This document shows, in pieces, positions 4,670 through 48,261 of a DNA stretch of 64,000 bases. Both the position numbers and the translations under genes were made by a program. Under the pieces are notes generated by a model that saw nothing but the letters and a program-made list of their open reading frames with translations, was not told where the DNA came from and searched no databases. Each line of letters opens with the position of its first letter. Position 1 is the stretch's first letter. Origin of the DNA: Selenomonadales bacterium (GTDB taxonomy: Bacteria; Bacillota; UBA994); the NCBI GenBank assembly GCA_018335585.1, contig JAGXRZ010000001.1:6281-70280 (forward strand), read 5' to 3'.

Positions 4670-6205
4670 TAATTTTCCTCCTTAGAAATGCACGGACTTG
4701 ACAGTTTTGCTGAACGGAAACATGATAACATATGTTGACCGAGTTGTCGCATGTGCGAATTGACTCGCTCTAGCATAGTATAATCTATCTTTGGCGCGAC
4801 ATCATAAAAGGAAGGGAGGCGGGAGGGCCACCATGAATACAGAGATCCTACATACCCCACGACGCATCCACTTCATCGGCATAGACGGCATCTCCATGAG
4901 CGCGCTGGCGTTAATCATGCAGAGGCGAGGCTGGCAGGTGTCCGGCTCAGACCTAAAACAGTCGGACCTCACGCGGCGCCTGATTAAGGACGGAGCAACG
5001 ATTTACCTAGGCCACGCCAAAGAGCATGTACTGGGTGCCGAAGTAGTGGTGTTTACTGCTGCCATAAAACCCGATAACCCAGAACTCGTGGCGGCGAGGG
5101 AGAGTAACGCCACCGTTCTTTCGCGTGCGGAGTTCCTTGGCACCCTAATGGGAGAAGCGCGGTACGGCATTGCCATAAGCGGCTCGCACGGCAAGACGAC
5201 GACCACGGCCTTAGTGGGCCTCTTGTGTGAACACGCGGGCCTTGACCCGACCGTATTAATAGGCGGCGAACTCGACGCGCTCGGCGGCAACGTCAAAGTA
5301 GGGAGCAGCGACTACTTTGTGGCAGAAGCCTGCGAATATGTCGAGACGTTTCTGGCTCTGCGCCCGATGCTCGGCGTGATTCTTAACATCGACGCCGACC
5401 ACCTCGACTATTTCGGCGACCTCGATCACGTCAAAGCCGCATTCCTGCGTTTTGCTAAGCTTATCCCAGCAGAGGGCCTCCTAGTCGCCTGCCGCGACGA
5501 CGCAAATGTGCGCGAAATCCTGGCTAACGCAAAGTGCCCAGTCGCCACCTATGGCCTCATGCAAGGTGCCGACTGGTGGGCGACAGAGATAGAACTCCGG
5601 CCCTCGGGCGAGAGCCTGTTTACGGTTTTCTTCCGCAATGCGCAACTTGGGCGCGTAACCTTAGGTGTACCCGGGCGGCACAACATACTAAACGCATTGG
5701 CCGGCCTCGCGGTAGGCAGCCACTTAGGCATTCCCTTTGCGACTATGGCCAAAACGCTACAGGCATTTCGCGGGACGCACCGACGCTTTCAGACTAAGGG
5801 TATGTTCGGCGGCGCGACGATTATTGACGACTACGCGCACCACCCCACCGAAATCCGCGCCACTCTAGCTGCCGCACGGGCGCTTGCCCCTAAACGCGTG
5901 ATTGTCGTGTTTCAACCGCACACCTACACCCGCACCAAAACTCTGCTTAACGAATTCGCAGTCTGCTTTGGTGACGCAGACGAGGTTATTATTACAGATA
6001 TTTACGCCGCGCGCGAGCGAAACACGCACGGCATAAGCTCAAAGGACTTAGTCGATAAAATTAAGGCCGAGCGGTCTTCGGTACATTACATCGGTTCTTT
6101 GGAAGACGCCACCGCTTTTCTTAGCACGCGCCTACGCGCAGGCGACCTGCTCCTGACGATGGGAGCAGGCGACGTGCATTACGTGGGGGAAGCGCTGTTG
6201 GCTCT

Positions 6206-6326
<121 letters not shown>

Positions 6327-6329
6327 ACG

Positions 6330-6719
6330 CTATAAGCCCTTAGCGCTCTTCCTCGCAAGGTAGTCCTTCACCGCTGCGTGCAATGCATCGGCGGCCAAGT
6401 TAGAACAGTGTAGCTTTAGGGGTGGCAGTCCGCCGAGGGACGTGGCCACCTCTTTGTTTGTCATGGCGAGCGCCTCTTCTACAGTTTTGCCGATAGCCAT
6501 CTCGGTAACGATGCTGCTTGTAGCTACAGCAGCTCCGCAGCCAAAGGTCTGGAACTTAATGTCGGTAATGCGCTCGTTTGCGTCAACCTTAATGTACATG
6601 CGCATAATGTCGCCGCAGCTGATGTTGCCTACCTCGCCCACGCCGTCGGCGTCTTCGATACTGCCGACGTTGCGCGGCCGCTGAAAGTGGTCCATTACTT
6701 TGTCGTTATACATACTCAT
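6330..6719 (-). CDS. iscU: Fe-S cluster assembly scaffold IscU/NifU N-terminal-domain protein
   Basis: GNISCGDIM, FQTFGCGAAVATSS and LHCSNLA give the three conserved scaffold cysteines. AGGAGG RBS. Confidence 0.9.
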   Translation of the reverse strand: MSMYNDKVMDHFQRPRNVGSIEDADGVGEVGNISCGDIMRMYIKVDANERITDIKFQTFGCGAAVATSSIVTEMAIGKTVEEALAMTNKEVATSLGGLPPLKLHCSNLAADALHAAVKDYLARKSAKGL

Positions 6720-6745
6720 TTATAAGTCCTCCTGTCAATTTGGGA

Positions 6746-7115
6746 GTGTCGCTTGTAGCTTGGGGAGGGAGCCGCCGGCCGCCAGGCGCCAGCCGCCAGC
6801 TTTATACGGAGAGCTTTTGGGCTTTAGGCGTTAGGCGTTAGGCGTTAGGCGTTAGGGGAACGGGCTATGAGCTTTGAGCTCTGAGCTGTGAGCGACGAGG
6901 GGTAATTGGCTCCTGGAACCAAGAGCCCCATCCTCCGCTGAGCACGAAGCACGAAGCACGCTCTCCTCTACTAGCAGCCAGGAGCTAGCAGCTAGGAGCG
7001 CTCCGTTCTACTGGGCACTGAGCACTGAGCACTAGGCACCTCCCTACCAGTAGCCAGGAGCTAGCAGCTAGGAGCCCCCCGTTCCCCTGGCGGCTGGCGG
7101 CTGGCGGCCGGTGGC
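6746..7115. repeat. Composite array of tandem heptamer blocks (array II, downstream of nifS)
   Basis: Blocks in order: GTCGCTT, GCCGCCA-type, GGCGTTA x4 (6819-6855), GAGCTnT x4 (6863-6892), GCACGAA x3, AGCCAGGAGCTAGC, GGGCACTGAGCAC (7008-7040), AGCCAGGAGC (7047-7075), CTGGCGG x3 (7087-7115). Confidence 0.9.
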
Positions 7116-7120
7116 ACCTC

Positions 7121-8275
7121 TCACCGGTACAGCGGCGACATCTTCCGCAGCCGCTCCACTATCGCGGGCATCACCGACAGCACATAGTCTACATCTGCCT
7201 CGGTGTTATCGATGCCTAAAGTAAGGCGAAGCGACCCGTGCGCCTGTTCGTGAGTTAAGCCCATGGCCAGGAGCACGTGCGATGGCTCAAGCGACCCCGA
7301 TGTGCAGGCCGAGCCGCTAGACACCGCTATCCCCTGCATATCGAGACTTAAAATCAAAGACTCGCCCTCTACGTAGCGCACGCTTACGTTTACGTTGCCG
7401 GGCAGGCGCTGTGTGGGGTGGCCGTTAAGCGTTACTTCGGGCAAGGCCAGAAGACCCGCGGCAAGCTTGTCGCGCAGCGCCGAGATTTTCGCCTGTCTTT
7501 CCGCCAAGTCAGCCGTCGCAAGCTCAAGCGCTTTCGCCAAGCCGATGATGCCGACGTGGTTCTCGGTGCCCGGCCTGTACTTGCGCTCTTGCCCGCCGCC
7601 GTGGTAAAGCGGCTTCACCCGCGTGCCTTTCTTAATGTAGAGCACGCCAATCCCCTTCGGGCCGTAGAACTTGTGCGCCGAGAAGGACATCATGTCTACG
7701 CCGAGGTCCTTTACGTCTACAGGAATACTCCCGACTGTCTGCACGGCGTCGGTATGAAAGCTTATCTTCTTGGCGCGAGCAATCGCCGCCATTTCTTTGA
7801 TTGGCTGAATCGTGCCCATCTCGTTGTTAGCGTGCATAATCGTGGCGAGAATGGTGTCGGGCCTCAGCGCGGCTTCAAAGTCTGCCACGCTAACCAAGCC
7901 ATGCTCGTCGACAGGCAGATAGGTAACCTCATAGCCCTGCGATTCGAGGAAATGGCACGTGTCGAGCACGGCGTGGTGTTCGATTTTACTCGTGATGATA
8001 TGTCGCCCATCCTTGTTGCGGGCAAGGGCTAAGCCTTGAATGGCAATATTGTCGGCTTCCGTGCCGCCCGACGTAAAGAATATCTCGCGTGGGTCGGCCC
8101 CTATGGCCGTAGCCACCTTTTCGCGTGCCTCGTCTACCGCTTTGCGCGAATCCCTCCCAAAGCTATGCACGCTCGACGGATTGCCAAAGTGGTTGTGAAA
8201 ATAAGGCAACATAGCCGCAATTACCTCCGGATGCACCGGGGTCGTAGCGGCATGGTCTAAGTAAACTCTTCTCAT
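7121..8275 (-). CDS. nifS: cysteine desulfurase (NifS/IscS type, PLP-dependent)
   Basis: MRRVYLDHAATTP N-terminus, SFSAHKFYGPKGIG PLP-lysine motif, SSGSACTSG active-site Cys loop. Confidence 0.9.
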   Translation of the reverse strand: MRRVYLDHAATTPVHPEVIAAMLPYFHNHFGNPSSVHSFGRDSRKAVDEAREKVATAIGADPREIFFTSGGTEADNIAIQGLALARNKDGRHIITSKIEHHAVLDTCHFLESQGYEVTYLPVDEHGLVSVADFEAALRPDTILATIMHANNEMGTIQPIKEMAAIARAKKISFHTDAVQTVGSIPVDVKDLGVDMMSFSAHKFYGPKGIGVLYIKKGTRVKPLYHGGGQERKYRPGTENHVGIIGLAKALELATADLAERQAKISALRDKLAAGLLALPEVTLNGHPTQRLPGNVNVSVRYVEGESLILSLDMQGIAVSSGSACTSGSLEPSHVLLAMGLTHEQAHGSLRLTLGIDNTEADVDYVLSVMPAIVERLRKMSPLYR

Positions 8276-8317
8276 GGTGAGAACCTCCTCTTGAGTTGGT
8301 TAGTAACTGAATGGAGG

Positions 8318-8556
8318 GCTGCTAGCTCCTGGCTGCTGGCTGCTGGTAGGGGGGTGCCTAGTGCTCAGTGCCCAGTAGAGCCGTGTCGCGGTAGTGCCCG
8401 GTTTCCCTTCTATCATAGCTCACAGCTCAAAGCTCACAGCCCTTAAAGCCTAACGCCTAGCGCCTAAAGCCTCAATGCTCACCGCTCACCGCTCAGAGCC
8501 CTCTCCCTCAAGCGACAAGCGACAAGCGACAAGCGACAATCTCCTGGCGCCTGGTG
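8318..8556. repeat. Composite heptamer array (array III, upstream of nifS), an inverted counterpart of array II
   Basis: Blocks 8318-8346, 8353-8378, 8414-8441 and 8441-8470 are reverse complements of 7047-7075, 7008-7040, 6863-6892 and 6819-6855, in nested antiparallel order. GCGACAA x4 and CTGGCGC blocks follow. Confidence 0.85.
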
Positions 8557-8558
8557 TC

Positions 8559-8972
8559 TCACATCTTCTCTCGCGCCCATGTCGCTAGGTCGCGGAGGGT
8601 AGCGCCATCCATAACCTGGCGCATGCTCTCGGATACCTTGTTCCATAGCTCGCGAGTAGCACAGACATGCACGCGCTCACACCCGCCGGCGTGGTCGCAA
8701 TCCACTAACTTAATGGGCCCTTCCACGGCGCGCACTATGTCGCCCGCGGTTATGTCCTCTGCCGGACGGGCTAGCGTATAGCCGCCTTTTGCGCCGCGCT
8801 GTCCGCTCACTAGTTTGGCACGTCGCAGCTCCATAAAAATTTGCTCCAGATACTGCGCCGAAATGTCCTCCATCTCGGCGACAAAACGCAGCGGCACCGG
8901 TCCCTGCTCTTCGTGCATGGCTACTACCGTCATCGCTCGCACTGCATATTGCCCTTTAGTAGATAACCGCAT
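8559..8972 (-). CDS. Rrf2 family transcriptional regulator (IscR/CymR-like)
   Basis: MRLSTKGQYAVRAM N-terminal wHTH signature, and it is the first gene of the nifS-iscU cluster. Start set to ATG 8972 (an alternative ATG is at 8990). Confidence 0.85.
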   Translation of the reverse strand: MRLSTKGQYAVRAMTVVAMHEEQGPVPLRFVAEMEDISAQYLEQIFMELRRAKLVSGQRGAKGGYTLARPAEDITAGDIVRAVEGPIKLVDCDHAGGCERVHVCATRELWNKVSESMRQVMDGATLRDLATWAREKM

Positions 8973-8991
8973 GGGTCTCACCCCTAGCATA

Positions 8992-9045
8992 CCCGATAGA
9001 ATTACTCGGGATTAGCCCGATAAAAAAACCGAGTATTTTCCTCGG
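8992..9045. promoter_or_regulatory. Nested palindromes upstream of the Rrf2 gene (candidate operator)
   Basis: CCCGA(8992-8996)..TCGGG(9006-9010)..CCCGA(9016-9020), plus CCGAG-N7-CTCGG (9029-9045), in the 5-prime region of the Rrf2 gene. Confidence 0.35.
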
Positions 9046-9058
9046 ATTAATTGTACGC

Positions 9059-9991
9059 CTAGCGAGAGTTAGTGTCAAGAGGCAAACGCCCTCCCACGAC
9101 GCGGTCGCGCCCGGCCAGGTCTTGTCGCACGAACAGCTCGGTGAAGTGCGCCGAGGCAAGGAGTGACTTCACTTCGTCCGCTTGGGTACAGCCTATTTCA
9201 AGCAGTAACCAGCCGCCCGGGGTAAGAAAGCCAGGAGCCAGAGCGGCAATGCGCCGATAATACGCCAAGCCGTCCTCCCCGCCCTCTAGAGCTATACGCG
9301 GCTCACTTTGCACGTCCGATGCTAGTATTGGAATTTCTGCGCTTGGAATATACGGCGGATTCGCTGTAATCATGCTAAAGCGCATACCCTCTACCGGGGC
9401 AAACAGATCCCCTTGCCTAAACTGCACGCGGTCGCTTACCCCAAGGCGCGCGGCATTTTCTGCAGCCACGGCTAACGCCGCGTCCGATATATCCGTAAGA
9501 TAGACCTGAAGCTCCGGCACCTCCGCCGCTAGCGTCAGCCCGATACATCCGGAACCCGTACATAGATCAAGCAATACATTCTCCGCAGTGCCGCTAACGC
9601 ATTCCCCAGTGCGAAGTGCGAAGTGCGAAGTGCTAGTGAGTTTGCGTGTTCTGGCAAATTCACCCCTACACACCCGCAGCGCTTCCTCGACTAGCGTTTC
9701 CGTATCAGGGCGCGGAATAAGCACCGCAGGCGTCACGCGAAACTCTCGCCCAAAAAACTCTGTATAGCCTATTATGTACTGCAGCGGCACACCGAGCGCG
9801 CGCTGCCGCAAAGCTTCGCGGTAGCGCTCTACCACATGCTCGTCCACCTCGCGGCTAGGGTACGCCAGGAACGCGGCGCGACTTAGGTCAGTTACCGAGC
9901 GCAGCAGTAGCTCCGCCTGCCAGCAGGCATCGGCAACACCCGCTAAGCTAAGCTCGGCCGCGCCGGCATCCCACAGGGCTTTTACCTTCAC
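9059..9991 (-). CDS. prmC: peptide chain release factor N5-glutamine methyltransferase
   Basis: [14 protein letters not shown] motif and ITANPPYIP (NPPY). GTG start overlaps the prfA stop (GTGA). Confidence 0.9.
9608..9640. repeat. Heptamer array (GCGAAGT x3) lying in frame inside prmC
   Basis: agtgcgaagtgcgaagtgcgaagtgctagtgag encodes part of ..[12 protein letters not shown].., in the variable linker before the SAM-binding motif. Confidence 0.8.
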
Positions 9992-16725: not shown

Positions 16726-17733
16726 CTATGGAAGAAAATTAAGCGGGTCCTTAAAGCGGTCGTCCACACGCACTTCGAAGTGCACATGCGGCCCGGTCGA
16801 GTTTCCGGTGCTGCCCACGCGCGCTATCACTTGTCCCTGCACTACGCGGTCGCCGCGCTTAACTAGCAGGCGCGAGGCGTGGGCGTAAAGCGTTCTTACC
16901 CCGTTGCCGTGGTTAATAATCACGCAGTTGCCGTACCCGCCCCACCAGCCGGCCTTTTCTACCCGCCCGGCGCGCACGGCGCGAATCTCGGTGCCTGTCG
17001 GGGCGGCAATATCAAGCCCGGTGTGGCGCGTGCCCCAGCGCGGACCAAAATAGCTCGTAATCTGGCCAGTAACCGGCCAAATCATGCCGGAGGCGCTACT
17101 TGGGCTGCGCGCCTGCCCTGTTACCGCTGCCGCCGCCGGGATGTTCAGAACTTGCCCGATACTTAAGTGATCGACCTCCCTGAGGTCGTTTAGATCAACG
17201 ATGGCCGCCACCGTGACGCCGTGGTTAGCGGCAATAAGAGAGAGGTTTTCACCCGAACGTACTCTATGCCGGCGCGGCTCAGGCGGCTTCTCCACTAAAA
17301 GAAGCGTCTGACCAGGGCGCAGCATGTGGGGGTTTGTCAGCGAATTGAGCGCCCTGATGCGCTGTACGGTCGTGTTATACCGCGCCGCAATGCCGGACAG
17401 AGTGTCTCCGCGCGCCACCACATGCGTCAGCGGTGACGGGCCGCCTACACCGGCTGCCGGTTCTGGGGTGGGTTTGCTCTGGGAGGGACTCGTAGGCGTA
17501 GTGGGCGCAGTAGGCGTAGTAGGGGTAATGGTGGTAATGGTGGTCATGGGGGTAGTGGTGGTAGTCGGTGCCTCGCTCGCAGGGGTTGGGGCTTGTACAG
17601 CGGACAAGTCTTGGTCGTAAATCACCAAGTAAGCCGTGCTGTATTCCGGCGCCAGTGCAGACAGTGGCAAAACGCTGCTAAGCGCCACAAAAACCGAGCA
17701 AGCTAATACCCTACGCAAGTGTGAACTCGACAA
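16726..17733 (-). CDS. LysM domain-containing M23 family metallopeptidase
   Basis: Signal peptide, Pro/Thr linker, two LysM repeats (GDTLSGIAARY, GENLSLIAANH), and M23 motifs HTGLDIAAP and GSTGNSTGPHVHFEV. Confidence 0.85.
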   Translation of the reverse strand: MSSSHLRRVLACSVFVALSSVLPLSALAPEYSTAYLVIYDQDLSAVQAPTPASEAPTTTTTPMTTITTITPTTPTAPTTPTSPSQSKPTPEPAAGVGGPSPLTHVVARGDTLSGIAARYNTTVQRIRALNSLTNPHMLRPGQTLLLVEKPPEPRRHRVRSGENLSLIAANHGVTVAAIVDLNDLREVDHLSIGQVLNIPAAAAVTGQARSPSSASGMIWPVTGQITSYFGPRWGTRHTGLDIAAPTGTEIRAVRAGRVEKAGWWGGYGNCVIINHGNGVRTLYAHASRLLVKRGDRVVQGQVIARVGSTGNSTGPHVHFEVRVDDRFKDPLNFLP

Positions 17734-17850: not shown

Positions 17851-19488
17851 ATGAGGTTAACTTTTGTCGGTGGCTGTGACACGGTCACCGGGTCATGCTA
17901 CTTGCTTGAGGCAGGCGGAACGCGGCTGCTTATTGACTGTGGCATGTTTCAAGGAGGCAAGGACGAGAGATCGCGCAATGAGGAACCTTTTCCTTTTGCG
18001 CCACAGTCGCTTGATGGCGTGCTGCTGACCCACGCTCACATCGACCACAGCGGCCTTCTGCCAAAATTAGTTAAAGACGGTTTCGCAGGCCAGATAATTA
18101 CCACGCGAGCTAGCGTCAGCCTCGCTCAACTTATGCTGAGGGACTCCGCCCATATCCAAGAATCTGAAGCAGAGTGGCTGAACCGCAAGGGCAAGCGCGC
18201 CGGTTCTGTGGACGTAGAACCCCTCTACACACTAGAGGACGCCGAACGCTGCCTAGAGCGCTTTGCGGGCGTGAGTTACGGCGCCTCCCGCGAAGTCGCG
18301 CCCCACATAACCGTGCGCTTTCTTGACGCCGGGCACATTTTGGGTTCGAGCATTATTGAGCTCTATGTGCGCGAGGAAGGCCGCGAGCGAAAACTTGTGT
18401 TCTCCGGCGACCTTGGGGAAGAGGGCAGGCCTATTGTTGCCGACCCGACGATAGTTGAATCAGCAGATTATCTGGTCATGGAGGCCACTTACGGCAATCG
18501 CCTGCACGAAGAGACCGAGAAGCGCCGCGAAAAAATCCGCGACATTATTTTGCTGGCTGTTAAAGACCGCGAAAAAGTGATTATTCCGGCCTTTGCCGTC
18601 GGCAGGACGCAAGACGTGCTGTACGAAATAAATGGTCTGTACCGCGACGGGCAGATTCCTCTCATACCGGTGTATATTGACAGCCCGCTGGCTATATCCG
18701 CAACTCTGGTCTTTCGCCAGTACCAAGAGGATTACGATGAGGAAACGCGTGCGCTGCTTAAGCGCAACATGTCCCCCTTTGATTACCCCGGGCTCCGCTT
18801 TACGCGCACGGTGGAAGAGAGCAAAGCGCTAAACGAGTCGACCGAGACCTGCGTCATTATCTCCGCTAGCGGCATGTGTGAGGCCGGTCGCATTAAACAC
18901 CACCTAAAGCACAGTCTGTGGCGTGAAGGCGCGCATATTCTGTTTGTCGGCTACCAAGCCGAGGGCACGTTAGGCAGGCGCATCAAGGACGGAGCAAACA
19001 AGATTAACATTTTGGGCGAGGAAATAGCCGTGCGCGCTAACATCCATAGCATTGAGGGCCTGTCGGCGCATGCAGACCGGGCAGGGCTCTTCAAATGGGT
19101 GAGCGGCATAAAGAATCAGCCGCAGGCCGTCTTTATTACACACGGTGAGGCGACCCCAAGAGCCGAGTTCGCCGCGCTGCTGCACGCTGAACTGGGGCTG
19201 AGAGCCCTCGTGCCGAGCTGTGGCGAGCAGTATGACCTGCGCGAGGCAGCGGTTCTGGTTACTACAGGCACGCGACAGGCTGTACCGCCCAAAGCAGCGG
19301 ATGACCTCGAGCGGCTGTGGCGCCGTGCTCGAAAGTCTTTAGCGCGTGCTTTGCAGGCAGGCACTCGCAGAGAGGCGCGCGAGGCACAGCGCCTGACCGA
19401 AAAGCTCGAGAATCTCCTCCGCAAGATTGTGGCAGATGAAGCAAAAGGGACGGAGCTTTTTGCTTCACACAAAAGGCGATCCCCATGA
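17851..19488 (+). CDS. MBL-fold beta-CASP hydrolase (RNase J/CPSF-like family)
   Basis: THAHIDHSG motif, beta-CASP and RMMBL-like C-terminal region. The last ~15 codons are read through a REP hairpin. Confidence 0.75.
   Translation: MRLTFVGGCDTVTGSCYLLEAGGTRLLIDCGMFQGGKDERSRNEEPFPFAPQSLDGVLLTHAHIDHSGLLPKLVKDGFAGQIITTRASVSLAQLMLRDSAHIQESEAEWLNRKGKRAGSVDVEPLYTLEDAERCLERFAGVSYGASREVAPHITVRFLDAGHILGSSIIELYVREEGRERKLVFSGDLGEEGRPIVADPTIVESADYLVMEATYGNRLHEETEKRREKIRDIILLAVKDREKVIIPAFAVGRTQDVLYEINGLYRDGQIPLIPVYIDSPLAISATLVFRQYQEDYDEETRALLKRNMSPFDYPGLRFTRTVEESKALNESTETCVIISASGMCEAGRIKHHLKHSLWREGAHILFVGYQAEGTLGRRIKDGANKINILGEEIAVRANIHSIEGLSAHADRAGLFKWVSGIKNQPQAVFITHGEATPRAEFAALLHAELGLRALVPSCGEQYDLREAAVLVTTGTRQAVPPKAADDLERLWRRARKSLARALQAGTRREAREAQRLTEKLENLLRKIVADEAKGTELFASHKRRSP
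19437..19467. repeat. REP-like hairpin inside the 3-prime end of the MBL gene
   Basis: tgaagcaaaagggacggagctttttgcttca, translated as [10 protein letters not shown]. Confidence 0.85.
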
Positions 19489-20494: not shown

Positions 20495-20526
20495 TGTGAA
20501 GCAAAAGGCTCCGTCCCTTTTGCTTC
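20495..20526. repeat. REP-like hairpin (opposite orientation) between convergent genes
   Basis: tgaagcaaaaggctccgtcccttttgcttc. Confidence 0.85.
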
Positions 20527-22522: not shown

Positions 22523-22693
22523 ATCTTGTACCACCTCGTGCGCGACGGTCTGTGGGCTGTGTGGGGCGCAGTTCATGAATTTGCATGAACACGCAAATTC
22601 ACTAGCACTTGGCACTTAGCACTTAGTAGAACGAGGGGGCCGCTGGCTCCTGGCTCCTGGTAGAGGGAGAGCACGCACGCTCTCCACAACGAC

Positions 22694-22745
22694 GTAGGGA
22701 CGTGCGTTTCGCACGTCCGCGGACGTGCCAGAGGCACGTCCCTAC
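22694..22745. repeat. 52-nt double-hairpin palindromic element (copy 2, inverted)
   Basis: gtagggacgtgcgtttcgcacgtccgcggacgtgccagaggcacgtccctac. Confidence 0.85.
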
Positions 22746-22798: not shown

Positions 22799-23482
22799 CT
22801 ATTGCCCTGCGTTCTGCTTGTTTTGCCTGCGCTGGCGCATTTGCCCGATGCGGCGCTGCGCGTTCTCACGGATAATGTCTAGCCCTTCGCCGGCTTCAAT
22901 GCGGGCGCGAATCTCTGCTGCGTTCGCGAGGACAGTCTCGGCATGCTTGATCATTCTTTCGGCTATCTGTGCGGCGTTCTTCTCGGTGGCGGCTAGGACG
23001 CGGGCCTGGCGCTCCTGCAGTGCGGCTAGGCGCTTCGCTGCTGCCTCTTGGTCGGTTGCGCTCTTAGCTCTTTCGGTAGCCTCGGCTAGTATACGTGCCT
23101 GAGCTGCCTTTAGGTCGGCCACAATTTTGGCGGGGAGGTTAGCCTTGTTGGCTAATGTCTCTTCTGCGCGAGCTACCATGGCATCGTGACGCTCTAGCAT
23201 GCGTGCCTTAAGCGCTTCCGGGTCAGTTTCGGCTAGTTCTTTGCACTTGGCAAAGCGTTCTTTAGCTTGGTCGGCAGCTTGGCCTACGCGCTTGCGTAAT
23301 TGGCCTGCTTGGGGAGGTGCATTTAGCCCAGCACGGATTTGGCCAAAGCCTAGACCCATGCCGTTTCCTGCGCCGGGGCGCGGCGCTTGGGGTTGTGGAG
23401 TGGCCGCTGCGGCTACTTGAGCTGCTAACGCCAGCACAACGACTAGTAGCAGTATTCTTTTCACTGACTTCACCTCTTTCAT
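22799..23482 (-). CDS. secreted Ala/Gln-rich helical protein, function unknown
   Basis: Signal peptide MKEVKSVKRILLLVVVLALAAQVAAA, then a long predicted helical region. Upstream of, and co-oriented with, the RR/HK pair. Confidence 0.5.
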   Translation of the reverse strand: MKEVKSVKRILLLVVVLALAAQVAAAATPQPQAPRPGAGNGMGLGFGQIRAGLNAPPQAGQLRKRVGQAADQAKERFAKCKELAETDPEALKARMLERHDAMVARAEETLANKANLPAKIVADLKAAQARILAEATERAKSATDQEAAAKRLAALQERQARVLAATEKNAAQIAERMIKHAETVLANAAEIRARIEAGEGLDIIRENAQRRIGQMRQRRQNKQNAGQ

Positions 23483-23583: not shown

Positions 23584-23645
23584 TGAAGCAAAAAGCTCCG
23601 TCCCTTTTGCTTCCGTCCGCGGACGTGCGGAACGCACGTCCCTAC
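23584..23645. repeat. REP-like hairpin fused to a half copy of the double-hairpin element
   Basis: tgaagcaaaaagctccgtcccttttgcttc, then gtccgcggacgtgcggaacgcacgtccctac. Confidence 0.8.
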
Positions 23646-23646
23646 A

Positions 23647-24612
23647 TCAACTACGCTTTAGGAAGGTTTTGCGTTCGAGGACGTGGGTGGCTTCTACCAG
23701 GCGGACGGTGCCAGTCTTAGAGCGCATGACAATCGAGTGCGTGGTGGCTTTAGGGCCGCTGTAGCGCACGCCGCGCAGGAGGTCGCCGTCGGTAATGCCG
23801 GTGGCGGCGAAAATTACGTCGGCGCTCTTGACTAAGTCGTTTTGCGTCAGCACGCCAGAAATATCTTTAAGGCCCATCGCGCGCGCACGCTCTACTTCTT
23901 GCTGACTGCCCGGCACGAGCCGCCCCTGCATCTCGCCGCCCAAACACTTAAGCGCCGCGGCCGCGAGCACACCCTCCGGTGCGCCGCCGATGCCTAACAG
24001 CACATCCACGCCGCTTTGTCCAAAAGCCGTAGCCACGGCCGGAGCCACGTCGCCGTCGCTAATTAGTTTAATGCGCGCCCCGGCTTCCCTTACCGCCCTG
24101 ATTATCGCGGCATGGCGCTCGCGGTCTAAAATAACGACAGTAAGGTCTTCTACTTTAACGCCTTTAGCCTGCGCTATACGTGCCAGATTATCGGCAATCG
24201 GCGCCTCTATATCTATGCAGCCCTTAGCTTCCGGCCCGACCGCAATCTTGTCCATATACATATCCGGCGCATGTAGGAGGCCTCCCTTTGGCGCAACGGC
24301 CAAAACGGAAATTGCGTTTGGCAGGCCCTTCGCCACCAAGCTTGTGCCTTCTAACGGGTCTACCGCAATATCTACCTCCGGAAATTGCGCACCGCCTACC
24401 TGCTCGCCGATATAGAGCATGGGCGCTTCGTCCATTTCGCCTTCGCCGATGACGACCGTGCCCTTAATCTGCACCGTGTCGAGCATAGCGCGCATGGCGT
24501 CTACCGCCGCTTTATCCGCAGCGTCCTTCATCCCGCGGCCCATTAAGCGGCCACTAGCGATAGCGGCAGCTTCGGTGACGCGGACGAATTCGAGAGCGAG
24601 TTCGCGTTCCAT
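23647..24612 (-). CDS. glpX: class II fructose-1,6-bisphosphatase
   Basis: [27 protein letters not shown].. N-terminus and [15 protein letters not shown] are typical GlpX. Start set to ATG 24612. Confidence 0.85.
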
Positions 24613-24637
24613 GGGGGTTCCTCCTTGCTTGGTGGAT

Positions 24638-25170
24638 TCGCACTTAGCACTTCGCACTTTGCACTTAGGAGAGTTGGAGCTTGGCTATGCGCAAGTAGAA
24701 AGTACCTATGGGAGCGTGGCGTGCCGCGCTACTCTGATCTGGCGTTTAGTAGCTTCTATTAATCCGCTCAGCATCGCTCCTACGGTGTTGCACGTATCGC
24801 GGAGGCGTTCTGACTGTTCTCCGGTAAGAAACCCTAGGTCTTTGGACAGCGTTACGAGACTTCTTACTTCCATCAGTGAGCCCTTCGAAACGTACAGAAA
24901 CCGTAACAGCTCCGGCCTGCTGTGTCTTCCGTGCCCTTCAGCAATATTCGACATTACCGACACCGCTGCACGCCTAACCTGAGACGTTATACCGTACTGC
25001 TCTTTTAGTGGGAACGAGTCAGTGAGGCGGTACACATCTCCTGCTAATCTCCGCGCTTCCTGCCACACCTTAAGTTGCTCAAACCCCGCCATCTCACTGC
25101 TCCTTCCTAGCAAGGTCGTTCCAGCATCGCGTCGTCATATTCTTCTACGAAGTGCCAAGTGCCAAGTGCT
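24638..25170 (-). other. IVS-like cassette 1: four-helix-bundle gene bracketed by inverted GCACTTn heptamer arms
   Basis: Arm 24638-24669 (tcgcacttagcacttcgcactttgcacttagg) against arm 25148-25170 (cgaagtgccaagtgccaagtgct), which is its reverse complement apart from the 7th positions. Confidence 0.6.
24706..25092 (-). CDS. four-helix-bundle protein (23S rRNA intervening-sequence protein / Avd-like family), copy 1
   Basis: QVRRAAVSVMSNIAEGHGR..LRFLYVSKGSLMEV signature. ATG 25092 behind GGAAGGAG. Confidence 0.8.
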   Translation of the reverse strand: MAGFEQLKVWQEARRLAGDVYRLTDSFPLKEQYGITSQVRRAAVSVMSNIAEGHGRHSRPELLRFLYVSKGSLMEVRSLVTLSKDLGFLTGEQSERLRDTCNTVGAMLSGLIEATKRQIRVARHATLP

Positions 25171-25174
25171 ACCC

Positions 25175-25844: not shown

Positions 25845-26015
25845 GCTTGTCGCTTGTCGCTTGTCACTTGTCCCTTGGGGAAATGCGTCGGTCGCTTGTC
25901 CCTTGGGGAAATGCGTCGGTCGCTTGTCGCTTGTCGCTTGTCCCTTGTGGATAGCGGAAAGCGGACAGCGTAAAGCCTCCTCTCTGCTGGTGGCTGGCGC
26001 CTGGCGGCCGGCGGC
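25845..26015. repeat. Composite heptamer arrays (CTTGTCG, AGCGGAn, CTGGCGG) plus a 28-nt direct duplication
   Basis: cttgtcgcttgtcgcttgtc.., then cttgtcccttggggaaatgcgtcggtcg repeated at 25867-25894 and 25895-25922, then gatagcggaaagcggacagcg and ggtggctggcgcctggcggccggcggc. Confidence 0.85.
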
Positions 26016-26805: not shown

Positions 26806-27462
26806 CTAACTCCCCGCTCGCACCACATACGTCACAAACAACCCCGGCGTCATTACTTCGTCGGGGTCGATAGCGCCGACGGGGACTATTTCTTCTGCTT
26901 CGGCGACAACAACCTTGGCCGCCATGGCCATCAGGGGGTTAAAGTTGCGCGCCGCGCGGCGGTAAACGAGGTTGCCCTTCTCGTCGGCCTTGTATGCTTT
27001 AATCAACGCAAAGTCGGCGTGAAGCGGCAGTTCGAGCAGGTACTCTTTGCCTTCTATCGTCAGTTTCTGCTTGCCTTCTTCTACTACGGTGCCTACCCCG
27101 GTGGGGGTGAGGACTCCGCCTAGACCCGCGCCTGCCGCGCGCACCTGCTCGGCGAGTGTACCCTGCGGCACAAGCACGACCTCGGTTTCGCCTGAGTGCA
27201 TCTGCCTGCCGGTCTCGGGGTTCGTGCCGATATGCGAGGCCATGGCCTTCTTTACGCGCTTGGCGACAATCAGCTTACCTATGCCCCGCTCAGGAAAGCC
27301 GGTGTCGTTGCCGATGACGGTTAAGTCTTTGCTGCCCTTCGCCAGCACCTCATCTACTAGCCCTTCCGGCGTCCCTACGCACAAGAAGCCGCCGATCATT
27401 ACTGACATGCCGTCCTGCAGCGAAGCGAGGGCATGTGAGGGTGATGTAACTTTACTCCTCAT
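26806..27462 (-). CDS. atoD: 3-oxoacid CoA-transferase subunit A
   Basis: [10 protein letters not shown] and the GIG/ETEV region are typical of CoA-transferase A subunits. Adjacent to subunit B. Confidence 0.85.
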
Positions 27463-27892
27463 TTGTGACCATCCTCCTGTTGGATTTGCTGCCAGCCGCC
27501 AGCCGCCGGGCGCCAGCCCTAGGAACGACCGTCGGAGGCGAAGCTAACGCTTTAAGTAGTCCATTTAGCATTCTGGAGACCGTGCGCGCTTCCGCGTCAA
27601 GCCTACGATATTCCTGCTCGGGGAGCAAGCCGAGATCTTTAGCCAGCAATAGCAGGTACTCTAGTTCACCACAAGAAGCGCGAGATATGTAAAGAAACCT
27701 AGCGTAGTCTGCGTCGGATCCCCTGTTCTTCCCCTCCGCAATGTTGGTCGGCACGGACACAGCAGCGCGCCTTATCTGCGAGGTCAAGCCGTATAACTCG
27801 TCGCGCGGGAAGTTCGCTGTAATCTTGTAGGCGTCAAGAACAAATGCGTGCGCCTTCTGCCACACTAGTAGCGTTTCGTGTCCTCCCGTCAT
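27452..27892 (-). CDS. four-helix-bundle protein (23S rRNA IVS / Avd-like family), copy 2
   Basis: [37 protein letters not shown]. Its ATG overlaps the kce stop (ATGA). The C-terminal ~30 aa are read through a heptamer arm and overlap the atoD start by 11 nt. Confidence 0.8.
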
Positions 27893-27930
27893 ACACTACT
27901 CCTGGAGGCTGGCGGCTGGCGCCTGGCGGC
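27488..27930 (-). other. IVS-like cassette 2: four-helix-bundle gene bracketed by inverted CTGGCGG-type arms
   Basis: Arm 27488-27519 (gctgccagccgccagccgccgggcgccagccc) against arm 27904-27930 (ggaggctggcggctggcgcctggcggc). Confidence 0.6.
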
Positions 27931-28737
27931 TATCCCAAGCATCTCCCTCGCCTCAGTTGGCGTCGCTATTTCGCGGCCGCACTCGCGGGCAATGCGCACT
28001 ATGCGCGCCACAAGTTCGGCGTTGCTCTTGGCGAGCACACCTTTTGAGTAATAGATGTTGTCCTCAAAGCCAACGCGCACGTGCCCGCCCAGGACAATGG
28101 CCATTACGGCTAGCGGCAGCTCGGCGCGCCCGATGCCGGCGACGGTCCAAGTGGCACCCGCAGGCAGGCTTTCCACCAAGTGCATTAGGTTCTTGGCCGT
28201 ACCGGGCATGGCACCGGGCACACCTAGCACCAAGTCAAAGTGGAGCGGTTCACTTAGCAGGCCTTTTTTAAGCAGAGCAAGTGCGTTTTGAATCATGCCT
28301 GTTTCAAGGACCTCGACCTCGGGTTTAACGCCGTGCTCCTGCAGCGCTTTTGCGATGCGCTCCATGTACTGCGGCGAGTTCATAAAGACATCGTCGCCAA
28401 AGTTGCAGGTGCCCGCGGTAAGCGTGGCCATCTCGGGCCTCAGGGTAATCGGCGCGATGCGCTCCTCGATTTTCGCCGTCACCGCCCCGCCGGTAGAGAG
28501 CTGCACGATTAGATCGCACTTCTCGCGCATCAGGCGCATCGTCTCGCGGAAAATCTCCGGGTCCTGTGAAGGCTTACCGTCTTTGTCGCGCACGTGAATA
28601 TGTGCTATTGACGCACCGGCTTGCCAAGAGCGATACGCCTCCTCGGCGATCTCCGCCGGAGTAAGGGGTAGGTATGGGGTTTGCGCGCGGGTAACTTCTG
28701 CGCCGACTAAAGCGGCGGTGATGATGAGTTTAGTCAT
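27889..28737 (-). CDS. kce: 3-keto-5-aminohexanoate cleavage enzyme (BKACE/DUF849 family)
   Basis: MTKLIITAALVGAEVTRAQTPYLPLTPAEIAEEA..ASIAHIHVRD is the DUF849 TIM-barrel N-terminus. Neighbours are kal and atoDA. Confidence 0.75.
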   Translation of the reverse strand: MTKLIITAALVGAEVTRAQTPYLPLTPAEIAEEAYRSWQAGASIAHIHVRDKDGKPSQDPEIFRETMRLMREKCDLIVQLSTGGAVTAKIEERIAPITLRPEMATLTAGTCNFGDDVFMNSPQYMERIAKALQEHGVKPEVEVLETGMIQNALALLKKGLLSEPLHFDLVLGVPGAMPGTAKNLMHLVESLPAGATWTVAGIGRAELPLAVMAIVLGGHVRVGFEDNIYYSKGVLAKSNAELVARIVRIARECGREIATPTEAREMLGIAARRQPPASRSSV

Positions 28738-29177
28738 GTGGGAAACCTCCTTCTGGGGCTTTCCGCTGTCCGCTTTCCGCTTAATTGGTTCGTGCGAACG
28801 CTGCGTTGCTCGCTCAGCGTCCTCCTAACAGCTGTATTCATCTTACTAATCATCGAGGCGATGTCATCTAGGTCACTTTCAATTTTGCGATACGTGTCGG
28901 GACCCCAATATCCCAAGTCCTTACTTAATAAGGTTAGGTAGCGCACCTCAAGCAAAGATGCCCTGGCAATAGCAAGGAACCGCAGGAACTCCAAGTCGCT
29001 TCCCCGTCCCTTCCCTTCACAGATGTTGGTTGGTATCGACACAGCCGCCCTTCGTATCTGACTCACAATCCCAAACTGCTCGGCCTTGGGGAAACTCTCG
29101 GTGGCTCTATATACCTGCATCACCAAACCATGCGCTCTAGACAAAACCTCGAGTCTGTTCATCAACTCAAAACCCAC
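28734..29177 (-). CDS. four-helix-bundle protein (23S rRNA IVS / Avd-like family), copy 3
   Basis: [37 protein letters not shown]. Its stop overlaps the kce ATG (ATGA). GTG 29177 behind AGGGGGA. Confidence 0.8.
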   Translation of the reverse strand: MGFELMNRLEVLSRAHGLVMQVYRATESFPKAEQFGIVSQIRRAAVSIPTNICEGKGRGSDLEFLRFLAIARASLLEVRYLTLLSKDLGYWGPDTYRKIESDLDDIASMISKMNTAVRRTLSEQRSVRTNQLSGKRTAESPRRRFPT

Positions 29178-29246
29178 GTGGTTTCCCCCTATTCATCCTA
29201 CAGCTCGGCACCCTCCAGATCAGCGGATAGCGGAAAGCGGATAGCC
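28757..29246 (-). other. IVS-like cassette 3: four-helix-bundle gene bracketed by inverted GCGGAnA arms
   Basis: Arm 28757-28783 (ggctttccgctgtccgctttccgctta) against arm 29221-29246 (cagcggatagcggaaagcggatagcc). Confidence 0.6.
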
Positions 29247-43770: not shown

Positions 43771-43909
43771 GAAGCAAAAGGGACGGAGCCTTTTGCTTCA
43801 CCCGTTGCTTCACGGGCTGGCGCAGGAACTCCCAGTACTTGCCGCGAACATTCCTATACGTTACTGGACACCGCTAGAGTGAAGCAAAAGGCTCCGTCCC
43901 TTTTGCTTC
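43771..43909. repeat. Two REP-like hairpins in opposite orientation upstream of pmm
   Basis: 43771-43800 gaagcaaaagggacggagccttttgcttca and 43880-43909 tgaagcaaaaggctccgtcccttttgcttc. Confidence 0.85.
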
Positions 43910-43925
43910 GAAAGGGGATATTCTT

Positions 43926-45365
43926 GTGCCAATAAACCCACAGATCTTTCGTGAATACGATATTCGCGGCAACGCCGAGCGGGACTTTGCTGAGCCCGAC
44001 CTGCGCCGCCTGACCCAGGCCATCGTTACATATTTTGAGTCCCACGGCAGGAGAGAGATGCTCGTCGCCCACGACTGCCGCCTGAGCTCGCCCCGCATCG
44101 TGGCTACCATTCTTGACGTGGCGCGTGAGCGCGGCATGCGGGTCGTTAACATCGGCATGGTTACCACGCCTGCCTTCTACTACGCCGCCAAGCACCTCGG
44201 CATTGACGCCGGGCTTATCGTCACCGCCAGCCATAACCCCCCGCCCGACAACGGCATGAAGGTGCTGCTTGGCCCCTCCACCATCCACGGGGCGGAGATA
44301 AAGCAGATAGAGCGAATTGCCGCCAGGCTCCAGCCGCCAGCCGCCAGCCACCAGCCGCCAACAGCCGGCAGCAACCACCTGCAAGCGACAAGCGACAAGC
44401 CACAAGCGACAATCCATTATGACATCCTCACCCCCTACGTCGCTATGTTGGCCGAAAAAATAAGGCTCGGCCCGCGCCGGCTTAAAGTGGTGGTCGACTG
44501 CGGCAACGGCACCGCCGGCCCGGTTACGGAACGTTTCTTAGAGGCACTAGGCATCGACTACATACCGCTCTATTTTACGCCCGACGGCACCTTCCCCAAC
44601 CACGAGGCCGACCCCACCAAGCTAAAGAACCTTGTGGACCTCCGCGCGCGCGTGCTCGCGGAGAAAGCAGACCTCGGCATCGGCTTTGACGGCGACGGCG
44701 ACCGCATTGGCGTGGTGGACGACCTCGGCAACGTCATTTGGGGCGATTTGCTTATGGCCCTCTTCTGGCGCGAGATACTGCCCAAGCACCCGGGCACCAC
44801 CTGCCTGGTGGAAGTAAAGTGCTCACAAGGCTTAGTGGACGAAATAGTGCGCCTCGGCGGCCGGCCCGAGTTCACCAAAACCGGGCACTCCCTAATCAAG
44901 GCGCGCATGCGCGAGCTTGGCGCCGTCTTCACCGGCGAAATGAGCGGACACATCTTCTTTGCGGACGAGTACTACGGCTTTGACGATGCTCTCTACGCCG
45001 CGGGTCGCTTGCTTAGGCTGCTTTCGCACAGCACTGACAAGCTTTCTTCGCTAATAGCCACGCTCCCCACCTACTACAGCACGCCCGAAACGCGCATCCC
45101 CTGCCCCGACGAGCTAAAGTTTGGCGTGGTCGACGAGCTTACGCAAGTCCTCGCCCGGCAATACGCTACCATTACCGTCGACGGCGTGCGCGTGCAGTTC
45201 CCGGAGGGTTGGGGATTGTTTAGAGCATCAAACACCGGGCCGGTGATTGTCACCCGCTGCGAAGGAAAAACTCCCGCGCTAAGGCAGGAGTATATGCGTA
45301 TACTTGATGAGGCATTAGCCAAGGTGCTGCCCGGCGTTGCGATACCTTGGGAAGTGGGAAACTAA
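43926..45365 (+). CDS. phosphomannomutase/phosphoglucomutase (alpha-D-phosphohexomutase)
   Basis: Active-site TASHNPPPDNGMK, Mg loop GFDGDGDR, GEMSGH, C-terminal RASNTGPVIVTRCEG. Confidence 0.85.
   Translation: MPINPQIFREYDIRGNAERDFAEPDLRRLTQAIVTYFESHGRREMLVAHDCRLSSPRIVATILDVARERGMRVVNIGMVTTPAFYYAAKHLGIDAGLIVTASHNPPPDNGMKVLLGPSTIHGAEIKQIERIAARLQPPAASHQPPTAGSNHLQATSDKPQATIHYDILTPYVAMLAEKIRLGPRRLKVVVDCGNGTAGPVTERFLEALGIDYIPLYFTPDGTFPNHEADPTKLKNLVDLRARVLAEKADLGIGFDGDGDRIGVVDDLGNVIWGDLLMALFWREILPKHPGTTCLVEVKCSQGLVDEIVRLGGRPEFTKTGHSLIKARMRELGAVFTGEMSGHIFFADEYYGFDDALYAAGRLLRLLSHSTDKLSSLIATLPTYYSTPETRIPCPDELKFGVVDELTQVLARQYATITVDGVRVQFPEGWGLFRASNTGPVIVTRCEGKTPALRQEYMRILDEALAKVLPGVAIPWEVGN
44322..44412. 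repeat. Heptamer arrays (GCCAGCC-type, then GCGACAA x4) lying in frame inside pmm
   Basis: gccaggctccagccgccagccgccagccaccagccgcc...caagcgacaagcgacaagccacaagcgacaa encodes ..ARLQPPAASHQPPTAGSNHLQATSDKPQAT.., in a variable loop. Confidence 0.8.
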
Positions 45366-46740: not shown

Positions 46741-47189
46741 GGAGGATAACCAGAGCCTGATTGACCTTATTGCACTGATTAGGAGTTGACCTCAGGGGCC
46801 TGCATAGGGGCCTATATAAGCGTCTCTCCTTCTAATCAGGGTAATCAGTGAAATCAGGCTCTAAACTACGGGGGTTACTCAGGATAACCAGAGCCTGATT
46901 AGCCTTATTGCCCTGATTAGGAGTTGAGCACAGGGGCCTTCACCTCAGGGGCCTTCATAGGGGCCTATACAAGCGTCTCTCCTTCCAAATCAGGGTAATC
47001 AGTGAAATCAGGCTCTAAATTACCTGGGATACTCAGGATAACCAGAGCCTGATTAGCCTTATTGCCCTGATTAGGAGTTGACCTCAGGGGCTTTCACCTC
47101 AGGGGCCTTCATAGGGGCCTTTATAAGCGTCTCTCCTTCCAATCAGGGTAATCAGTGAAATCAGGCTCTAAACTACCGGGGATACTCAG
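46741..47189. repeat. Tandem island hairpin units (~153-bp period, ~2.9 copies) with no cargo between them
   Basis: Units at 46834-46918, 46988-47072 and 47141-47189 (truncated), plus a solitary right arm starting at 46744. Confidence 0.9.
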
Positions 47190-47245
47190 ATCCTAGCGCA
47201 GTTGCCTGCCTTGCTAGGGCCTATTTATCATGCTATTGTAGTATT

Positions 47246-47626
47246 GTGGAAGAGCATTGGGGGTGGCAATTTGCTATGTGGTCAACCCATATCCTAGACA
47301 GCGCGCGTGCCAAGAAAAAGCAAGCGCGGGAGCAACTTCGCGTTCGATTGCTAGACGCTGCCATGCAAGCCCTAGATAAGCTGTCCCTGTTGCTTCAGTT
47401 TGATAAAGCCTATGTATTTGGTTCCGTGGCAAGGCAGCAGGGGTTCGACGAGCTTTCGGATTTGGATATAGCCTTCGCAGGGCTGCGGGACGAAGATTAT
47501 TTTACCGCTGCGGCTTTTCTCTCAAGAGAAGTGGGCATAGACGAAGTGGATGTCGTGCAATTAGAGGGACATCGCCTGGCTAGTACAATAGTAAAGGAAG
47601 GGATACCGTGGAAAAGGAAAGGGTAG
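47246..47626 (+). CDS. nucleotidyltransferase-domain protein (MNT-type antitoxin)
   Basis: VFGSVARQ..SDLDIAF (GS..DxD Pol-beta NTase motif). Alternative ATG at 47276. Confidence 0.7.
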   Translation: MEEHWGWQFAMWSTHILDSARAKKKQAREQLRVRLLDAAMQALDKLSLLLQFDKAYVFGSVARQQGFDELSDLDIAFAGLRDEDYFTAAAFLSREVGIDEVDVVQLEGHRLASTIVKEGIPWKRKG

Positions 47627-48090: not shown

Positions 48091-48201
48091 TCAGTGAAAT
48101 CAGGCTCTAAATTACCGGAGATCCTCAGGATAACCAGAGCCTGATTGACCTTACTGCCCTGATTAGGAGTTGAGCACAGGGGCCTTTGAATCAGGCTCTA
48201 A
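48088..48201. repeat. Island hairpin unit (left arm 5-prime truncated, starts in the HEPN stop codon)
   Basis: taatcagtgaaatcaggctctaaattaccggagatcctcaggataaccagagcctgattgaccttactgccctgattaggagttgagcacagggg.. Confidence 0.85.
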
Positions 48202-48261
48202 CACGCACTGGCACATGCTTTCGCTTATGTGTTAGCGATGAACCAAAATTGAGCACTAATC

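Follow-up and report, generated by a model that had tools for sequence, protein, structure and literature searches.

In the 64,000-nucleotide stretch of contig JAGXRZ010000001.1 analysed here (the window), the cysteine desulfurase gene nifS of an iscR-nifS-iscU operon is flanked by an inverted pair of a composite module built from tandem heptamer arrays. This array pair is statistically far beyond chance, and was shown to have arisen through DNA duplication. What is new here is that arrays resembling short tandemly repeated repetitive (STRR) heptamers form a bracket around a housekeeping cistron, in the manner of an intervening sequence (IVS), and that they do so in a new lineage.

Inverted heptamer arrays on either side of nifS

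The genes iscR, nifS and iscU are co-directional on the minus strand, with murC converging on iscU from the left and prmC also in the neighbourhood. The spacer upstream of nifS, between iscR and nifS (spacer B), occupies 8276-8558 and measures 283 bp; the spacer downstream, between nifS and iscU (spacer A), occupies 6720-7120 and measures 401 bp. An earlier reading made from the sequence alone (the original prediction) had given their sizes as about 280 and 400 bp and called them unusually large for this operon. It had also described the spacers as mosaics of heptamers. Tandem Repeats Finder located 15 period-7 arrays there, each of 2.7-5.3 copies, so that this description holds, and tandem 7-nt units in at least three copies, as in STRR repeats, are present in both.

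The two spacers are reverse complements of each other, and all of their block pairs are nested and colinear. The pair formed by 7017-7084 and 8309-8376, into which the two innermost blocks merge, extends over 68 nt, more than any other inverted repeat within 4 kb in the window; inside it, 7047-7068 and 8318-8339 are 95% complementary over 22 nt. The remaining blocks pair 7007-7032 with 8354-8379 (92% complementary), 6862-6891 with 8413-8442 (30 nt, 90%) and 6807-6858 with 8440-8491 (52 nt, 77%). All four nested block pairs of the original prediction were thus recovered in colinear order, and a fifth, outermost pair (6747-6765 with 8506-8524) was found beyond them. A local closing stem within spacer A, which pairs 6768-6799 with 7087-7118 (32 nt, 91%), is likewise an addition to that prediction. 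The unique core of spacer B (8377-8412) lies between the GAGCTNT and GGCACTN arrays, and the last ~42 nt of this spacer, after the CAGCAGCCAGGAG array, hold the Shine-Dalgarno site of nifS. On the other side, the outermost 3′ arm stops 27 nt ahead of the iscU start codon, so that the Shine-Dalgarno site of iscU stays free. Both sites therefore lie outside the duplex. The features are collected in Table 1.

Table 1. Features of the nifS bracket, its operon and other array brackets of the window
Feature	Position	Strand	Details
Spacer B, 5′ arm in RNA	8276-8558	-	Sense arrays GTCGCTT x4, GAGCGGT, TAGGCGN, GAGCTNT, unique core, GGCACTN, CAGCAGCCAGGAG
Inner 3′ arm	7017-7084	-	Pairs with 8309-8376, 68 nt, 87%; minimum free energy (MFE) helices of 24, 9 and 17 bp
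Middle 3′ arm, TAACGCC and AGCTCAN arrays	6807-6893	-	Pairs with 8413-8491; helices of 19, 12 and 11 bp
Outermost 3′ arm, ACAAGCGACA...	6747-6767	-	Pairs with 8503-8524
CTGGCGG-type array	6768-6801	-	3′ half of local closing stem of spacer A, competing with long-range pairing
GCCGCCA-type array	7084-7118	-	5′ half of local closing stem of spacer A
Allele-specific part of spacer A	6900-7005	-	Second direct copy of CTCCTAGCTGCTAG, GTGCTTC array, small hairpin
iscR-type Rrf2 regulator gene	8559-8990	-	PF02082, E = 5e-42
nifS / iscS-type cysteine desulfurase gene (class-V aminotransferase), looped-out cistron	7121-8275	-	PF00266, E = 6e-99
iscU (NifU_N) gene	6330-6719	-	PF01592, E = 4e-51
Sigma-70-like promoter, TTGACA-17-TACAAT	9050-9078	-	11/12 matches; upstream of iscR; probable start of operon transcript
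Local hairpin, AGTGCCC x4 and ACTGAGC x6 arrays	6204-6331	.	Between convergent murC and iscU; 36 columns, 81%
PF05635 gene 24706-25113 with GCACTTN / AAGTGCC arrays	24637-25172	-	Arms 24637-24668 / 25146-25172
PF05635 gene 27452-27892 with GCCAGCC / GGCTGGC arrays	27480-27938	-	Arms 27480-27516 / 27902-27938, 37 nt, 78%
PF05635 gene 28734-29177 with GCTTTCC / GGAAAGC arrays	28757-29245	-	Arms 28757-28781 / 29215-29245

When the two spacers were cofolded as sense RNA, the check that the original prediction had proposed, the gain over separate folds was -93 kcal/mol. The gain fell to -7.5 kcal/mol with spacer A flipped and to -27 kcal/mol with the block order reversed, and twelve other array-rich spacers of the window gave -5 to -48 kcal/mol. 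Shuffled block orders, named in advance as a control, also gave less, at -63.5 +/- 17.5 kcal/mol for 40 random orders, of which one reached the real value. Chance complementarity arising from a common heptamer vocabulary was considered and rejected, both on the values of the other spacers and because the arms of a second allele, described below, share sequence outside the arrays.

A construct joining spacer B to spacer A through GAAA folded at -386.6 kcal/mol (z = -18.6). Alone, spacer B behaved like shuffled sequence and had no fold of its own (z = -0.02), whereas spacer A gave z = -3.8 because of its local 32-bp closing stem. MFE folds of the 1839-nt spacer-nifS-spacer RNA and of a 2849-nt model of the whole operon contained 143 pairs between A and B, in unbroken helices of up to 24, 19 and 17 bp. 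In the 2849-nt model, 123 of the 283 bases of spacer B pair with spacer A at a probability (P) above 0.9, and the local closing stem of spacer A is unpopulated in the equilibrium ensemble of the full transcript. The long-range pairing of 5′ and 3′ flanks that marks rRNA stalks is thus present at nifS, by prediction only. Of the proposed segmented stem that loops out nifS, the pairing is upheld by these folds; its conservation, as shown below, is not.

A promoter scan of 6000-9300 gave one good minus-strand site, at 9078-9050, and the scan found neither promoter-like nor terminator-like sites in spacers A and B, nor T-tract terminators there. A single promoter upstream of iscR, with no promoter or terminator in the spacers, fits co-transcription of the three genes. 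The hairpin between murC and iscU is probably the end of the operon transcript. Rfam identified no known RNA family or rRNA at the nifS bracket, and a known RNA family was also rejected for the murC/iscU hairpin, where a permissive threshold gave only sub-threshold, miRNA-like hairpin matches.

For a check of alleles we used the eight contigs listed for the NifS protein of the window in JGI, ENA and Logan assemblies. Six agree with the window wherever they extend, four of them spanning both spacers and two ending inside spacer A. The bracket is not an assembly artefact. The other two (L010 and L011, from different assemblies) carry a second allele of spacer A, in which a continuous inverted copy of spacer B stands in place of the 6900-7005 segment. 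Their arms form an inverted repeat of 168 columns at 83%, which takes in the unique, non-repeat core of spacer B, and the cofold gain rises to -137 kcal/mol. Since the inverted copy includes a non-repeat core, the arms are genuine inverted duplications of DNA. Spacer B was uniform in every contig of this species that covers it, and strong complementarity to it is kept in both alleles of spacer A. The unique core occurs once in the window and had no match in the metagenome contig collection, which evidently lacks this organism.

One further contig (L190, Logan SRR24693326) encodes a NifS 95% identical to that of the window and has the same flanks minus one 7-nt unit. Its nifS gene differs at 85 positions, all between gene positions 111 and 975, and the gene ends are identical; this pattern suggests either a recombination tract, making the locus a mosaic, or a chimeric assembly. 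The identity of the flanks was therefore not taken as a sign of constraint. The arms change through mosaic replacement of segments and by gaining or losing 7-nt units one at a time.

Heptamer arrays across the genome and around PF05635 genes

The host is related to candidate division NPL-UPA2, a Bacillota group known from serpentinite waters and not yet in culture; the closest named relatives are metagenome-assembled genomes of candidate division NPL-UPA2 / Bacillota. The window contains 30 arrays of at least eight families, at 6.2-9.6, 22.6-29.7 and 44.3 kb. They are dispersed and mainly intergenic, as STRR repeats are, and GCACTNN, GCCGCCA, GGAAAGC, CAAGCGA, GAGCTNT and other families recur at 22.6-29.7 and 44.3 kb. 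Arrays are dense in relatives from this lineage, while 64 of the 101 fetched loci have none and other Bacillota loci are largely array-free. The arrays are a lineage-wide, invasive repeat system of fast turnover that resembles the STRR repeats of cyanobacteria. Its characteristic form is a complementary array pair, either as a local hairpin or as a bracket around a short gene, mostly a PF05635 gene.

PF05635 denotes the "23S rRNA intervening-sequence protein" family. The window has three such genes (E = 1e-34 to 1e-40) and no further member, and each of them is bracketed by inverted arrays, which belong to the three commonest families of the window. The trio sits at 24.6-29.3 kb, in a run of genes for FBPase, transaldolase, CoA-transferase subunits and BKACE. 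In the closest genome match for this operon, an NPL-UPA2 metagenome-assembled genome (L022; BKACE 86% identical), two of the three genes are kept at the same sites, together with arrays of the same families; in a 76% relative (L023) neither PF05635 genes nor arrays are found at those junctions. BKACE and two PF05635 genes have reading frames that extend through the arrays and so acquire array-encoded C-terminal tails (27889-27931, 27452-27560 and 28734-28800); the stop of BKACE and the start of the PF05635 gene that follows overlap in the sequence ATGA. A decayed PF05635 gene within the nifS spacers was looked for by a profile search of six-frame translations and rejected (best E = 1.7).

The association was surveyed at 80 unrelated metagenomic loci with PF05635 homologues of 40-57% identity (L106-L185). 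For 76 of them the flanking sequence was long enough to score, and an inverted repeat was counted from a score of 14 in 180-nt flanks. Flanking inverted repeats were present at 56 of the 76, compared with 4 of 76 in a direct-orientation control; shuffled flanks averaged 7.6. Period-7 arrays occurred at 2.55/kb in these flanks and at 0.13/kb elsewhere, a 20-fold difference, while period 8 reached 0.57/kb and other periods were close to zero. The heptamers of the arms are specific to the locus (for example AGGTCTT, GTCGTTG, CAGGTGT, AGGGGCT, TTGCCAG, GCGAATG and CAAGAGC x12), and in 30 of 45 cases both neighbouring genes have the orientation of the PF05635 gene. A location within a 23S rRNA gene, which would have tied heptamer stems straight to known intervening sequences, was found for none of the 80 loci. 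One group of loci with GTCGTTG arms is a single orthologous locus with flanking proteins 65-95% identical, so that the arrays there persist over considerable divergence. Because such loci are orthologous, the tendency of heptamer identity to follow protein similarity was not accepted as a sign of mobility or of protein specificity.

Among 72,556 plasmids, PF05635 homologues are almost all cyanobacterial. Inverted flanking arrays of ~7 nt were found in examples from Anabaena sp. 90, Pseudanabaena, Calothrix and Nostoc (L186-L189), those of the Nostoc plasmid being nearer 6-7 nt, and the genes of the Anabaena sp. 90 and Pseudanabaena plasmids are inserted between cas6 and cas4. At one metagenomic locus (L153) GGGGACT / CCCCAGT arrays flank the PF05635 gene; CCCCAGT is the STRR1 repeat of Nostocales.

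In our literature search, no paper linking PF05635 genes with heptamer arrays or with STRR repeats was found, nor any description of repeats in NPL-UPA2 genomes, the NPL-UPA2 genome paper being silent on repeats. The general association of PF05635 with inverted heptamers is the most valuable by-product of this analysis, as it ties together two old unknowns, the nature of STRR/heptamer repeats and the role of free-standing "23S rRNA intervening-sequence" proteins; array brackets also explain why such loci break metagenome assemblies. One conceivable but rather speculative reading is that inverted heptamer arrays and a PF05635 gene, which encodes a four-helix bundle, together make up a widespread, undescribed cassette, an "operonic intervening sequence" placed co-directionally between genes, and looped out of and probably cut from polycistronic RNA at a stem of 7-nt repeats. 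If so, STRR repeats, unexplained since 1990, would be the arms and dispersed remains of a cassette system, and in the NPL-UPA2-like lineage the arms would have been freed from their cargo gene and would now stand around housekeeping nifS and in coding linkers; the PF05635 proteins might recognise or generate the arrays.

The nifS bracket shares features with several known systems. Intervening sequences of 23S rRNA are excised by RNase III at the stem formed by flanking inverted repeats, and some of them encode PF05635 proteins; the excision was reportedly described in 1990 and 1993. Like them, the nifS bracket is an insert in a transcribed unit with flanking inverted repeats that form a long stem, and the protein family they encode is the one bracketed three times in the window. 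It differs in lying in an mRNA operon and not in a 23S rRNA gene, and in enclosing nifS instead of a PF05635 gene, which only the three other brackets of the window do. In bacterial rRNA operons the flanks of 16S and of 23S rRNA pair into stalks that are cut by RNase III. As there, 5′ and 3′ flanks are predicted to pair at nifS over at least 1.2 kb and to loop out a functional RNA segment, but rRNA stalks are conserved with covariation, whereas the nifS bracket is strain-variable, missing in most relatives and without an RNA-specific substitution pattern. REP, BIME and REPIN elements, and the intercistronic hairpins that can give the segments of an operon differing mRNA stabilities, as in malE-malF, resemble the arrays as dispersed intergenic repeats that vary among strains and form hairpins in operon transcripts. 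They are, however, imperfect palindromes of ~35 nt with a fixed consensus and local folding; the nifS arms are not of this kind, and consist of varied tandem heptamers with gene-spanning pairing.

STRR heptamers, reportedly described in heterocystous cyanobacteria in 1990, are alike in the repeats themselves: tandem 7-nt units, usually in 3-6 copies, of several families per genome, which lie mostly between genes and within operons, vary among strains and break assemblies. Here, in contrast, the host is a Bacillota-like lineage from serpentinite water and not a heterocystous or other cyanobacterium, the heptamer families are different, several arrays are joined into a module of ~200 nt, and the module stands as an inverted pair around a whole housekeeping gene of 1.15 kb. 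Heptamer arrays near start codons, intergenic and of patchy phylogenetic distribution, are shared with marine Beggiatoaceae, whose TAACTGA direct-repeat arrays have been proposed, not demonstrated, to act post-transcriptionally (MacGregor 2015, PMC4679880). In that case one heptamer dominates and is nearly always in direct orientation (1 inverted in 170 sets), whereas many families occur here and complementary pairing is the rule. Mixed heptamer arrays are also found in Microcystis and Bacteroidetes (PMC4679880), and the papers on Beggiatoaceae and Nostoc leave the function of heptamer arrays unresolved (PMC4679880; bioRxiv 10.1101/2022.06.06.494920).

A proposed processing stem and its alternatives

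Our working model, which we hold tentatively and at a little short of even odds, is that the inverted duplicated module is transcribed and acts as a processing stalk, like those of intervening sequences and rRNAs, that is cut by RNase III. A single iscR-nifS-iscU RNA would start from the promoter at 9078-9050. Having no fold of its own, spacer B would stay available during transcription of nifS, and the inner arrays of spacer A would pair with it before the closing partner within A is synthesised; this order of synthesis would favour pairing between A and B over the local stem of A. The predicted product is an interrupted duplex of ~140 bp with helices of at most 24 bp, with nifS looped out and both ribosome-binding sites free. 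Such a duplex may be a substrate for RNase III, and putative cleavage would yield stem-capped iscR, nifS and iscU RNAs with uncoupled stabilities, by analogy with 23S intervening sequences and rRNA stalks. If the model is correct, nifS would be a clear case of this type of processing on an mRNA cistron, and a simple means of uncoupling the levels of regulator, desulfurase and scaffold.

Several lines of evidence weigh against a processing stem. The first comes from relatives, whose loci were fetched through NifS homologues. Five loci from three species with 79-88% NifS identity are compact, with nifS-iscU spacers of 51-70 bp, and iscR abuts nifS where the upstream junction is readable (79-80% identity). 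At 81-92% identity heptamer arrays are present in the spacers, but at other sites and with other sequences. No bracket was seen in five lineages of this range: three have one-sided arrays or a purely local hairpin instead, and the contigs of two end before the downstream spacer is complete. In L102, AAGTGCG x4 is found in the upstream spacer only. An upstream array is missing from L001, L002 and L103, whose downstream spacer forms a nested hairpin that is purely local. Arrays occur only downstream in L104 and L105, the L104 contig ending before that spacer is complete, and L005 has AACCTTG and AACCCTG arrays upstream in a contig that ends in the same way. Apart from the two alleles of the window's species, nifS is bracketed only in one other species, L003 (89% NifS identity), and by other heptamers, CCGTCAA x4 / TTGACGG x5 (40 columns, 93%, cofold gain -58), with an outer GAATCAT / ATGATTC pair. 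Even here the pairing is unstable, as L004, with a NifS protein identical to that of L003, has its inner upstream array replaced and the inner pairing lost. In all, the bracket is missing from eight of the ten other lineages examined, and the downstream side of two more was unreadable. Pairing conserved through compensatory changes, as in rRNA stalks, was not found. The original prediction had staked itself on comparison of these spacers in relatives, and since block order and complementarity are not conserved in most of them, on this point it largely fails. The nifS bracket is neither a conserved device nor an old feature of the isc operon.

A second line comes from substitutions. Mismatches were counted in six array pairs: the nifS arms, the brackets of the three PF05635 genes, and two local hairpins of the window. 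G:U pairing would be permitted by 18 of them on the plus strand and by 11 on the sense (minus) strand; 48 permit it on neither. The corresponding counts for 46 PF05635 cassettes were 27 sense, 38 antisense and 49 neither. Strand asymmetry of G:U pairs was accordingly discarded as a sign of RNA-level selection, antisense folding energies equal the sense energies, and nothing was found that points to RNA-level selection on the nifS arms. A rule that the 5′ arm is G-rich was also discarded. It holds for 42 of the 44 PF05635 cassettes with non-zero GC skew (46 scored) and is broken by the window's own cassettes and by L003, and the handedness of an inverted repeat is the same on both strands, hence uninformative on the strand of the gene.

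The third line is the behaviour of the arrays elsewhere in the window. Same-family arrays within 5 kb form 11 inverted and 10 direct pairs. One array lies in frame in the PGM/PMM gene, as an insert of ~35 residues between PGM_PMM domains I and II (44323-44412 in the open reading frame (ORF) 43926-45365), and another (9605-9636) lies in frame inside prmC (9059-9991), whose product has 310 aa compared with 293-305 aa in relatives. Such in-frame arrays suggest a process of insertion or mutation that takes no account of RNA function. The nifS structure is one instance of a genome-wide invasive repeat system and is not specific to nifS.

These observations suit the main alternative, that the arrays are selfish or neutral repeat DNA. 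Two modules would have landed in opposite orientation around nifS, with the RNA duplex a tolerated by-product, and the repeats would spread or be homogenised as DNA, through such processes as slippage, fold-back of single-stranded DNA on the lagging strand or gene conversion between inverted copies. Fast turnover among strains and species, the absence of the bracket from most relatives, the variation by single 7-nt units, the in-frame arrays, the lack of G:U bias, the equal energies of both strands and the near-equal numbers of inverted and direct neighbours all agree with it. We nevertheless regard this alternative as possible but on the whole unlikely. Most of spacer B is complementary to spacer A, with the blocks nested, far beyond the other array spacers, and two different alleles of spacer A both retain strong pairing. 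A second species (L003) brackets nifS with different heptamers, both Shine-Dalgarno sites are clear of the duplex, and elsewhere the arrays that flank PF05635 genes are conserved well past the neutral expectation for intergenic DNA.

Alternatively, the arrays may be sites for a protein that reads 7-nt units, either PF05635 or a cold-shock-type protein, and that controls translation, RNA stability or transcription, their inversion being secondary. The linkage of PF05635 to heptamers, tight across unrelated taxa and specific to period 7, would be accounted for in this way, as would the presence of the three commonest array families at the PF05635 genes of the window and the fact that nearly all plasmid homologues come from cyanobacteria, which are known for STRR heptamers. 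A heptamer-binding factor has moreover been speculated on for cyanobacteria and Beggiatoaceae (PMC4679880; bioRxiv 10.1101/2022.06.06.494920). Heptamer sequences vary widely from locus to locus, however, the link between protein similarity and heptamer identity is explained by orthology, and the complementarity of the arms is left unexplained, so that we consider protein-binding sites improbable as the primary role.

Each spacer might also have a purely local role and form a hairpin that, like REP and BIME elements, stabilises the RNA, insulates it or causes partial termination, with the complementarity between spacers irrelevant. Local folding is seen in the closing stem of spacer A with its z of -3.8, in the purely local downstream hairpins of L001 and L103 and in the murC-iscU arrays. 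For the nifS spacers we think this very unlikely, since spacer B has no fold of its own (z = -0.02), the closing stem of A is unpopulated in the full-transcript ensemble and the spacers lack T-tract terminators. A DNA inversion switch, in which recombination between the arms flips nifS, is suggested by the flanking inverted repeats and can be virtually dismissed, because nifS has the operon orientation in every fetched contig with iscR or iscU (seven species or lineages, many samples), no recombinase gene is adjacent, the arms are only 77-95% identical in short tracts, and an inversion that takes an essential Fe-S assembly gene out of its operon has no evident rationale.

Other repeats of the window

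The region 46789-58700 contains repeat units of ~154 bp, within which lie inverted repeats and AATCAGGG 9-mers. These units separate small defence and toxin-antitoxin cassettes on both strands (HepT-like, HD, AbiEi/AbiEii, Uma2, DUF4411 with M78 peptidase, and DUF4276 with AAA_21). The arrangement resembles an integron-type array of cassettes and attC-like sites; among the ORFs checked there was no integrase.

A REP-like palindrome, GAAGCAAAAGGGACGGAGCCTTTTGCTTC, is found between genes at 19438-19469, 20495-20526, 23585-23615, 43771-43801 and 43879-43909, and also in L001 and L102; at times it stands in inverted pairs around arrays or genes. An inverted repeat not composed of heptamers, GACGTAGGGACGTGCG..., of 35 nt and 94% (22691-22725 / 23614-23648), brackets a single ORF of 227 aa without a Pfam match (22799-23482). 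Between the genes for CoA-transferase B and transaldolase, the spacer contains ~2.5 copies of a 28-nt unit, GTCGCTTGTCCCTTGGGGAAATGCGTCG, at 25856-25940 amid GTCGCTT arrays, and L022 has no spacer at this junction. Finally, two adjoining period-9 arrays lie at 17492-17563, with units GTAGGCGTA x4 and GGTAATGGT x4.4.

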